Assembly (NCBI RefSeq): GCF_003334335.1
Contig: NZ_QOWQ01000004.1
Strand: one strand, 5' to 3'
Length of the DNA: 64,000 bases
Source of the DNA: Escherichia coli
GTDB taxonomy: Bacteria > Pseudomonadota > Gammaproteobacteria > Enterobacterales > Enterobacteriaceae
Shown here: piece by piece, positions 27,218 to 27,501 of the stretch
Layout: each line of letters opens with the position of its first letter
Numbering within the stretch: position 1 is the stretch's first letter
Notes under the pieces: model-generated
What the model was told of the DNA's origin: nothing
Databases searched by the model: none
The model's input: the letters and a program-made list of their open reading frames with translations, nothing else
Program-made: the position numbers and the translations under genes

Positions 27218-27231
27218 GTTGACTCCTTCGT

Positions 27232-27490
27232 GCCGGATGCGCTTTGCTTATCCGGCCTACAAAATCGCAGCGTGTAGGCCTGATAAGACGCGCCAGCGTC
27301 GCATCAGGCGTTGAATGCCGGATGCGCTTTGCTTATCCGGCCTACAAAATCGCAGCGCGTAGGCCTGATAAGACGCGCCAGCGTCGCATCAGGCGTTGAA
27401 TGCCGGATGCGCTTTGCTTATCCGGCCTACAAAATCGCAGCGTGTAGGCCAGATAAGACGCGTCAGCGTCGCATCAGGCGTTACATACCG
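27232..27490. repeat. BIME/REP cluster: three tandem ~85-bp units, each with two inverted REP-like palindromes
   Basis: Unit starts at 27232, 27317, 27402 (period 85 bp), differing by single bases; the ORF-track ORFs through it repeat the same peptide and are artefacts. Confidence 0.9.
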
Positions 27491-27501
27491 GATGCGGCTA
27501 C

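Follow-up and report, generated by a model that had tools for sequence, protein, structure and literature searches.

The window analysed here, a stretch of 64,000 nucleotides of Escherichia coli DNA, carries the araBAD operon on its minus strand (Table 1). Between araA and araD lies a spacer of 284 bp (27218-27501), equal in length and sequence to positions 66551-66834 of E. coli K-12 MG1655; the surrounding region (26900-27820) is 100% identical to that genome, window position 27218 corresponding to MG1655 66551. Elsewhere in the window, Rfam matches above the gathering scores to SgrS (38034-38260, plus strand), the leucine operon leader (44240-44389, minus strand) and a TPP riboswitch (36178-36277, minus strand) represent known K-12 features and confirm the genomic context.

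A tandem array covers 94% of the araD-araA spacer. Tandem Repeats Finder reports it as a single array with a period of 85 bp, 96% matches, no indels and a score of 490. The initial annotation had described three near-identical 85-bp units, starting at 27232, 27317 and 27402 and placed inside araBAD between araA and araD; coordinates, description and flanking genes were all confirmed, as was the statement that the units differ by single bases, with one differing position between units 1 and 2, four between units 1 and 3, and five between units 2 and 3. Read on the plus strand, each unit is composed of a 29-nt palindrome, GCCGGATGCGCTTTGCTTATCCGGCCTAC (the y REP), a 13-nt tail-to-tail linker, AAAATCGCAGCGT, an inverted 36-nt palindrome, GTAGGCCTGATAAGACGCGCCAGCGTCGCATCAGGC (the z2 REP), and a 7-nt head-to-head linker, GTTGAAT. 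At the araA end of the array (27487-27504) a truncated y REP is directly contiguous with the araA stop codon, which looks as though araA had come to end within, or beside, an older REP. A CRISPR array was considered and rejected, given that the whole 85-bp unit including its linkers is repeated, with no unique spacers. Two unannotated open reading frames on the plus strand (27093-27314 and 27311-27505), antisense to the operon, were rejected as mechanical read-through of the repeats, and an Rfam match to Gl_RNase_MRP (17 bits, E 0.28) was rejected as chance.

Table 1. Genes and repeat features in and around the araD-araA spacer (window coordinates).
Feature	Coordinates	Strand	Remarks
polB	24096-26447	minus	
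araD	26522-27217	minus	TIGR00760, 449 bits; downstream gene of the operon
araD Shine-Dalgarno, AAGGAG	27223-27228	minus	unpaired in local folds
Whole tandem array	27231-27496		3.1 x 85-bp BIME-2 unit (Tandem Repeats Finder)
y REP, unit 1	27232-27260	minus	last hairpin on the mRNA; 3 nt separate its end from the araD Shine-Dalgarno; GTAG foot, AA/GC stem mismatch
z2 REP, unit 1	27274-27309	plus	exact z2 reference GCCTGATGCGACGCTGGCGCGTCTTATCAGGCCTAC; minus strand carries the natural IS621 target ATCAGGCCTAC
y REP, unit 2	27317-27345	minus	
z2 REP, unit 2	27359-27394	plus	unit 2 is the unit duplicated in 4- and 5-unit K-12 derivatives
y REP, unit 3	27402-27430	minus	
z2 REP, unit 3	27444-27479	plus	variant, tail TTATCTGGCCTAC; unit 3 is identical to the sole unit in certain 1-unit alleles
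Remnant of a fourth y REP, 15 nt, ACCGGATGCGGCTAC	27487-27501	minus	adjoins the araA stop codon
araA	27502-29004	minus	NF002795, 898 bits; upstream gene; stop codon UAA at 27504-27502
araB	29015-30715	minus	

Formal pattern searches identified the palindromes as REP sequences, two inverted copies per unit (one y and one z2 REP), as the initial annotation had proposed. The strict REP pattern GATG-N(4-26)-TTATCMGGCCTAC has six matches in the 64 kb against an expectation of 0.00 (100 shuffles), and five of these lie in the spacer; the REP tail with at most one mismatch has nine matches in the 64 kb against 0.15 expected, six of them in the araD-araA spacer. Reference REP sequences (y and z types, three in E. 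coli) were taken from a paper on IS621. In units 1 and 2 the z2 REP, taken as the reverse complement of the 36-mer, is identical to the long z2 reference, and the y REP has both arms (TGCCGGATGCG...CTTATCCGGCCTAC) in common with the y reference but is shorter by 5 nt in its apical part, giving 29 nt here compared with 34-35 nt in the reference. Measured against the 30-40 nt palindrome expected of a REP, the z2 REP at 36 nt is typical and the y REP slightly below. All six REPs carry the GTAGGCC/GGCCTAC foot and an internal stem mismatch, with predicted irregularities in the form of an AA/GC internal loop in the y REP and a C/U mismatch in the z2 REP; a GTAG foot and an internal stem mismatch are the hallmarks of REPs, the mismatch being needed for binding by TnpA(REP) (Ton-Hoang et al.).

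With respect to the way REPs are combined, BIME-1 elements consist of a y and a z1 REP joined by a long L linker, often with an IHF site, and occur as single copies, whereas BIME-2 elements consist of y and z2 REPs with short linkers in tandem copies, the number of which differs by locus and strain (Ton-Hoang et al.). In the araD-araA array, y and z2 REPs alternate in inverted orientation, and the linkers, at 13 nt between tails and 7 nt between heads, fit the "short" class of BIME-2, as judged by their length rather than by S/s/l/r motif sequence. The element is extragenic and also dispersed: 25 places match in MG1655, and the median is 16 per genome for the three-unit query, the number of matching places growing with the REP content of the query (medians of 1, 7, 16 and 18 for four queries). 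BIME-1, RIP and RIB elements resemble the array in that they are extragenic and draw on the same REP superfamily. IHF sites are known in a general way for some BIMEs, and this alone could be taken to favor an IHF-binding BIME-1 or RIP-type element, bending the DNA where a transcription unit ends. However, the array has no z1 REP and no long L linker, is tandem rather than single-copy, and gave no match on either strand to the IHF consensus WATCAANNNNTTR or its relaxed form WATCARNNNNTTR. At the level of sequence the BIME-1/IHF reading is refuted, and we see next to no chance that it applies. We assign the array to the BIME-2 class and not to BIME-1, because of its y and z2 composition, the length of its linkers, its tandem arrangement and the lack of an IHF consensus match.

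This identification was further checked with covariance models. Two of the Y-linker-Z2 pairs on the minus strand (27277-27342 and 27362-27427) score 60.2 bits each against the Rfam family naRNA4 (RF02564), for which the gathering score is 59.5; the third pair, at 31.3 bits, falls under this threshold. The naRNA4 transcript derives from a single Y-l-Z2 unit of REP325, which is itself a BIME-2 array, of six units, located between yjdM and yjdN. Both REP325 and the araD-araA array are tandem Y-linker-Z2 arrays transcribed from the promoter of an upstream gene; they differ in that REP325 has 77-bp units with "U" motif separators and has been shown to bind HU and to affect the nucleoid, while the araD-araA units are 85 bp long and their transcription depends on arabinose. 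The passing scores of two units on the transcribed strand, together with the shared architecture, would fit a scenario in which Y-linker-Z2 units are cut from the araBAD transcript and act with HU in bridging cruciform DNA, as for REP325. We give this scenario little credence, since the score barely exceeds the threshold, the model is effectively generic for BIME-2, the araD-araA RNA is made only under arabinose induction, and cruciform-containing DNA in general sufficed in the naRNA4 paper. The match is best read as "BIME-2 unit."

The RefSeq record of MG1655 has no repeat_region feature at the araD-araA spacer, and a literature search by name on REPs at araA-araD returned no relevant paper. 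The element is listed in a genome-wide survey of gyrase cleavage, as "BIMEs2 66566-66813, 247 bp, <araD-<araA" (window positions 27233-27480), with three in vivo sites by Topo-Seq in the presence of ciprofloxacin and three with rifampicin plus ciprofloxacin (Sutormin, 2018, table DS3); the same table notes two cuts at this BIME-2 from Espeli and Boccard (1997). Gyrase cleavage was found to be enriched in the BIME-2 class, to favor y REPs, and to persist or rise when transcription is blocked (Sutormin, 2018). The initial annotation had named gyrase or IHF as binding partners: the gyrase part is documented at the K-12 interval, whereas the IHF part fell away with the BIME-2 type and the missing consensus match. 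A second BIME in the window (32807-32866), formed by a z2-type REP and an inverted REP with the tail TTATCCGACCTAC, corresponds to the K-12 BIME-2 interval 72137-72221, for which the published table gives zero gyrase cleavage sites.

The araD-araA element has also been studied as a substrate of TnpA(REP). Oligonucleotides B315 and B316 from the MG1655 araD-A region were cleaved by the enzyme in vitro, for example at GGCC|TACA, and the single-stranded araD-A oligonucleotides gave strand exchange between iREP and linker sites, with products that had gained REPs (Ton-Hoang et al.). The GGCC|TACA context occurs in the y tail of the array in the window. As in REPIN/RAYT systems (Bertels and Rainey; Nunvar, 2010), inverted REP doublets are linked genome-wide to a single-copy tyrosine transposase, TnpA(REP); the RAYT gene is absent from the window, and RAYT action on the araD-araA BIME has been shown in vitro.

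Considering this evidence together, the array is very probably the known BIME-2 of the E. coli araBAD operon, with three head-to-tail units between araA and araD, each pairing a y REP with an inverted z2 REP. The K-12 BIME annotation covers 66566-66813, and the palindromes pass the y/z2 consensus. The array shares with other BIME-2 elements the inverted y/z2 arrangement, linkers of short length, tandem organization, extragenic position, gyrase cleavage, use as a TnpA(REP) substrate and variable unit number, and no essential difference was seen. Because the element is already known and documented at this exact locus, as an in vivo gyrase site in K-12 and an in vitro TnpA(REP) substrate, the finding is an ordinary one: a textbook BIME-2 in the best-studied bacterial genome. 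The census of alleles and the cross-genus pattern described below provide a useful description, not a new kind of system.

The locus was found in 5,426 of 5,426 complete E. coli genomes. In an evenly spaced sample of 58 chromosomes, the record spans pointed to four spacer lengths, which fetched examples showed to be 114, 168, 199 and 284 bp. Spacer lengths of 114, 199, 284, 369 and 454 bp differ by whole units and correspond to one, two, three, four and five units, respectively; a further allele of 168 bp, of which a 162-bp variant also exists, combines a single unit with a G/C-rich palindrome of 57 bp, which lies between its y REP and the Shine-Dalgarno of araD. An allele-specific query detected the palindrome-containing allele in 1,566 of the 5,426 genomes (29%). 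This allele and the one-unit allele jointly account for 2,163 genomes, which leaves about 597 (11%) with one unit, and addition of the two-unit allele raises the total to 3,248, which leaves about 1,085 (20%) with two units and about 2,178 (40%) with three or more units or rare forms; these percentages are rough estimates, and the 80% coverage criterion lumps the three-unit allele with those of at least four units. The corresponding values in the 58-genome sample (14%, 29%, 21% and 36%) agree with the whole-set estimates. The four- and five-unit alleles were revealed by record spans from a synthetic eight-unit query, which did not rank the alleles cleanly.

Laboratory strains appear to differ in unit number, MG1655 having three units, BL21(DE3), K-12 GM4792 and XL1-Blue four (369 bp), and Stbl4, XL10-Gold and TOP10 five (454 bp), the four- and five-unit forms each as represented by a single assembly. 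The site in such strains lies at 351-804, 351-719 and 348-716 of the fetched loci L010, L011 and L012, respectively. In the K-12 derivatives among these strains, each extra unit reproduces unit 2 exactly, which is what duplication of whole units would yield; several of the four- and five-unit strains presumably carry recA mutations. Units are 97.0% identical within arrays compared with 93.6% between strains, and the three- and four-unit arrays of different lineages are made from different linker variants, which points to local amplification and homogenization rather than one ancestral array. Whole 85-bp units are thus gained and lost readily between E. coli lineages, over a range of one to five units. 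The initial annotation had anticipated that copy number may vary between strains; with one to five units, a replacement allele and an IS621 insertion at the site, an invariant array is clearly not what is found. Units could be gained and lost through strand exchange by TnpA(REP), the YafM protein of K-12, because the direct repeats recombine unequally or cause slippage in replication, or through a mixture of these, and the arrays are probably homogenized locally. The site offers a convenient natural length polymorphism in a widely used operon.

The insertion concerns strain RM13322, where IS621, an IS110-family element with a bridge-RNA recombinase, lies within a z2 REP of the araD-araA BIME (locus L009, 1164-2641; transposase CDS 1329-2309), with CT on both sides at ATCAGGC/CT/AC. 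The spacer in this strain measures 1,478 bp, and subtraction of the IS621 length of approximately 1,279 bp gives 199 bp, the length of the two-unit allele. The insertion site matches the published natural IS621 target, ATCAGGCCTAC (IS621 paper). This 11-mer has two perfect copies in the K-12 window, both on the minus strand (27274-27284 and 27359-27369), and a third, at 27444-27454, that is a variant at target position 4. The z2 REPs are natural targets of the bridge recombinase, with one natural insertion seen.

The G/C-rich palindrome of the 168-bp allele, CCCTCACCCCGGCCCTCTCCCC...GGGGCGAGGGGG, is presumably boxC-like. Across the fetched loci it measures 48-57 bp, has the form CCCTCACCCC..CCCTCTCCCC..GGGGCGAGGGGG, and separates the single BIME unit from the araD Shine-Dalgarno (L002, 629-685; L006, 629-685; L093, 176-223); related copies occur at other sites in some E. 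coli genomes, and a like palindrome element fills the araA-araD spacer of Klebsiella, Kluyvera and Pseudocitrobacter. The range of one to five units, the palindrome allele in 29% of genomes and the 1.3-kb IS621 insertion argue that the exact size of the array carries little selective weight.

In the transcript, the REPs are predicted to fold into stable hairpins, in line with the folding check suggested in the initial annotation: the z2 hairpin has a predicted energy of -21.4 kcal/mol (z -5.5), that of unit 3 -16.8 kcal/mol, and the y hairpin -12.9 kcal/mol (z -3.4), and for the spacer as a whole the value is -142 kcal/mol (z -5.0). Tail-to-tail pairings of neighboring REPs are predicted to compete with the single REP hairpins. 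In the folds the araD Shine-Dalgarno stays unpaired, 3 nt past the last hairpin. Neither a terminator-like nor a sigma-70 promoter-like site was found on either strand of 27218-27501, and no U-tract follows any of the REP hairpins in the spacer. Upon induction of araBAD, the spacer would thus enter the mRNA as a train of up to six stable hairpins free of U-tracts. These hairpins would block 3'-to-5' exonucleases and so protect the araB-araA segment, and may cause some Rho-dependent attenuation ahead of araD; either effect would partly uncouple the expression of araD from that of araB and araA.

REPs are reported to act as mRNA stabilizers at malE-malF and hisJ-hisQ (Higgins, 1982; Newbury, 1987; Stern, 1988). 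Like the araA-araD array, those elements are intercistronic, lie downstream of promoter-proximal genes and form stable hairpins without U-tracts, but they comprise one or two hairpins compared with six here. The stabilization of mRNA by the array is plausible as a property of its class, and by analogy an exonuclease barrier is the most likely role of the hairpins in the araBAD RNA. The analogy with other REP operons is what supports a role at the RNA level, because a search for data comparing araA with araD at the mRNA or protein level found none for the locus. With respect to attenuation, BIMEs have been linked to Rho-dependent attenuation by Espeli (2001), as cited in another paper.

Two other roles in expression can be weighed against these features. 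Firstly, a REP hairpin near the araA stop codon could stall terminating ribosomes and so act as a translational brake on araA through tmRNA tagging. Such a mechanism was reported by Liang, Rudd and Deutscher (2015) for REPs within approximately 15 nt of a stop codon. At araA, the REP remnant starts directly after the UAA, and a weak hairpin of the remnant and the z2 head starts about 6 nt downstream; however, this nearer hairpin does not fold better than shuffled sequences (z -1.5, with 17 of 200 shuffles equally stable), and the first full z2 hairpin lies 22 nt past the stop, beyond the reported range, so that a brake of this kind seems to us distinctly improbable. Secondly, an intrinsic terminator or an internal promoter could separate araD from araBA. 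The spacers of Leclercia, Silvania and Franconibacter do carry a GC hairpin followed by a T-run, but neither strand of the E. coli spacer has such a site and the REP hairpins lack a U-tract; for E. coli we consider this extremely unlikely.

To place the array in a wider context, one genome per species was examined, giving 80 Enterobacteriaceae araD loci, 79 of which have araA upstream. Multi-unit 85-bp arrays were present only in the E. coli representative (four units) and in Escherichia sp. MOD1-EC7003 (three units), and E. albertii has a single unit. Elsewhere the spacer ranges from 0 to 184 bp and its content varies by genus. Citrobacter, Salmonella, Lelliottia, Kosakonia and some Enterobacter have genus-specific REPs, with a y-type REP often ending a few nucleotides before the araD Shine-Dalgarno; 13 loci (Klebsiella, Kluyvera, Pseudocitrobacter and others) have CCCTCTCCC/GGGAGAGGG palindrome pairs; in six (Leclercia, Silvania, Franconibacter and others) a GC hairpin precedes a T-run; and others have a single short GC hairpin. 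In loci L021, L040, L058, L063, L073 and L084, from Leclercia, Silvania, Franconibacter and relatives, a spacer of 51-57 bp made up of a GC-rich hairpin and a T-run resembles an intrinsic terminator inside araBAD. Stable folding is common to nearly all spacers, 77 of 79 reaching -15 kcal/mol or lower, and 72 of the 75 with a length of 30-200 nt having z below -2 relative to shuffles (median z -3.65). Of the two spacers that miss the former limit, one is 11 bp long and the other has undergone a deletion joining araA to the start of araD. A structured araA-araD junction is thus near universal, while the tandem expansion is specific to Escherichia.

Two scenarios could account for this pattern. 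The main rival to a functional reading of the array is (i) that it is a tolerated passenger, a selfish or neutral BIME in a permissive gap that is resized by recombination, with gyrase cleavage and hairpins as by-products. We regard this as a serious though tentative possibility: five length alleles and two boxC-like alleles coexist at substantial frequencies, an IS621 insertion exists, and other genera have unrelated palindromes at the site, one species having an 11-bp spacer with no hairpin. On the other hand, 77 of 79 species have one or another stable hairpin, and many genera have a y-type REP whose end lies just a few nucleotides ahead of the araD Shine-Dalgarno; both exceed what mere tolerance predicts, although repeated insertion at a preferred site could also explain the pattern. 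The near-universal structured spacer counts somewhat against the passenger scenario. It is also conceivable, but on balance unlikely, (ii) that selection across the Enterobacteriaceae favors a stable intercistronic hairpin of one sort or another at the araA-araD junction, no matter which kind of repeat provides it (genus-specific REP, boxC-like palindrome or terminator-like stem). If so, the unit number and the boxC-like allele in E. coli would act as a segregating dial on the AraD:AraA ratio, and such a dial would bear on the accumulation of toxic L-ribulose-5-phosphate. The near-universal structured junction provides a simple test case for whether REP hairpins tune expression within an operon.

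Two individual loci in the cross-genus sample deserve mention. In Trabulsiella odontotermitis strain 01 (L079, approximately 2440-2510), most of the spacer hairpin has been deleted together with the araA 3' end, and the araA frame consequently enters the start of araD; in a sister strain (L081) the hairpin spacer is normal, at 44 bp. The record CACSKA010000010.1 (L052), labelled Chryseobacterium sp. 18061, holds an enterobacterial araA-REP-araD arrangement with E. coli/Citrobacter-type REPs and an AraD 95% identical to that of E. coli, and the assembly is probably contaminated or mislabelled.
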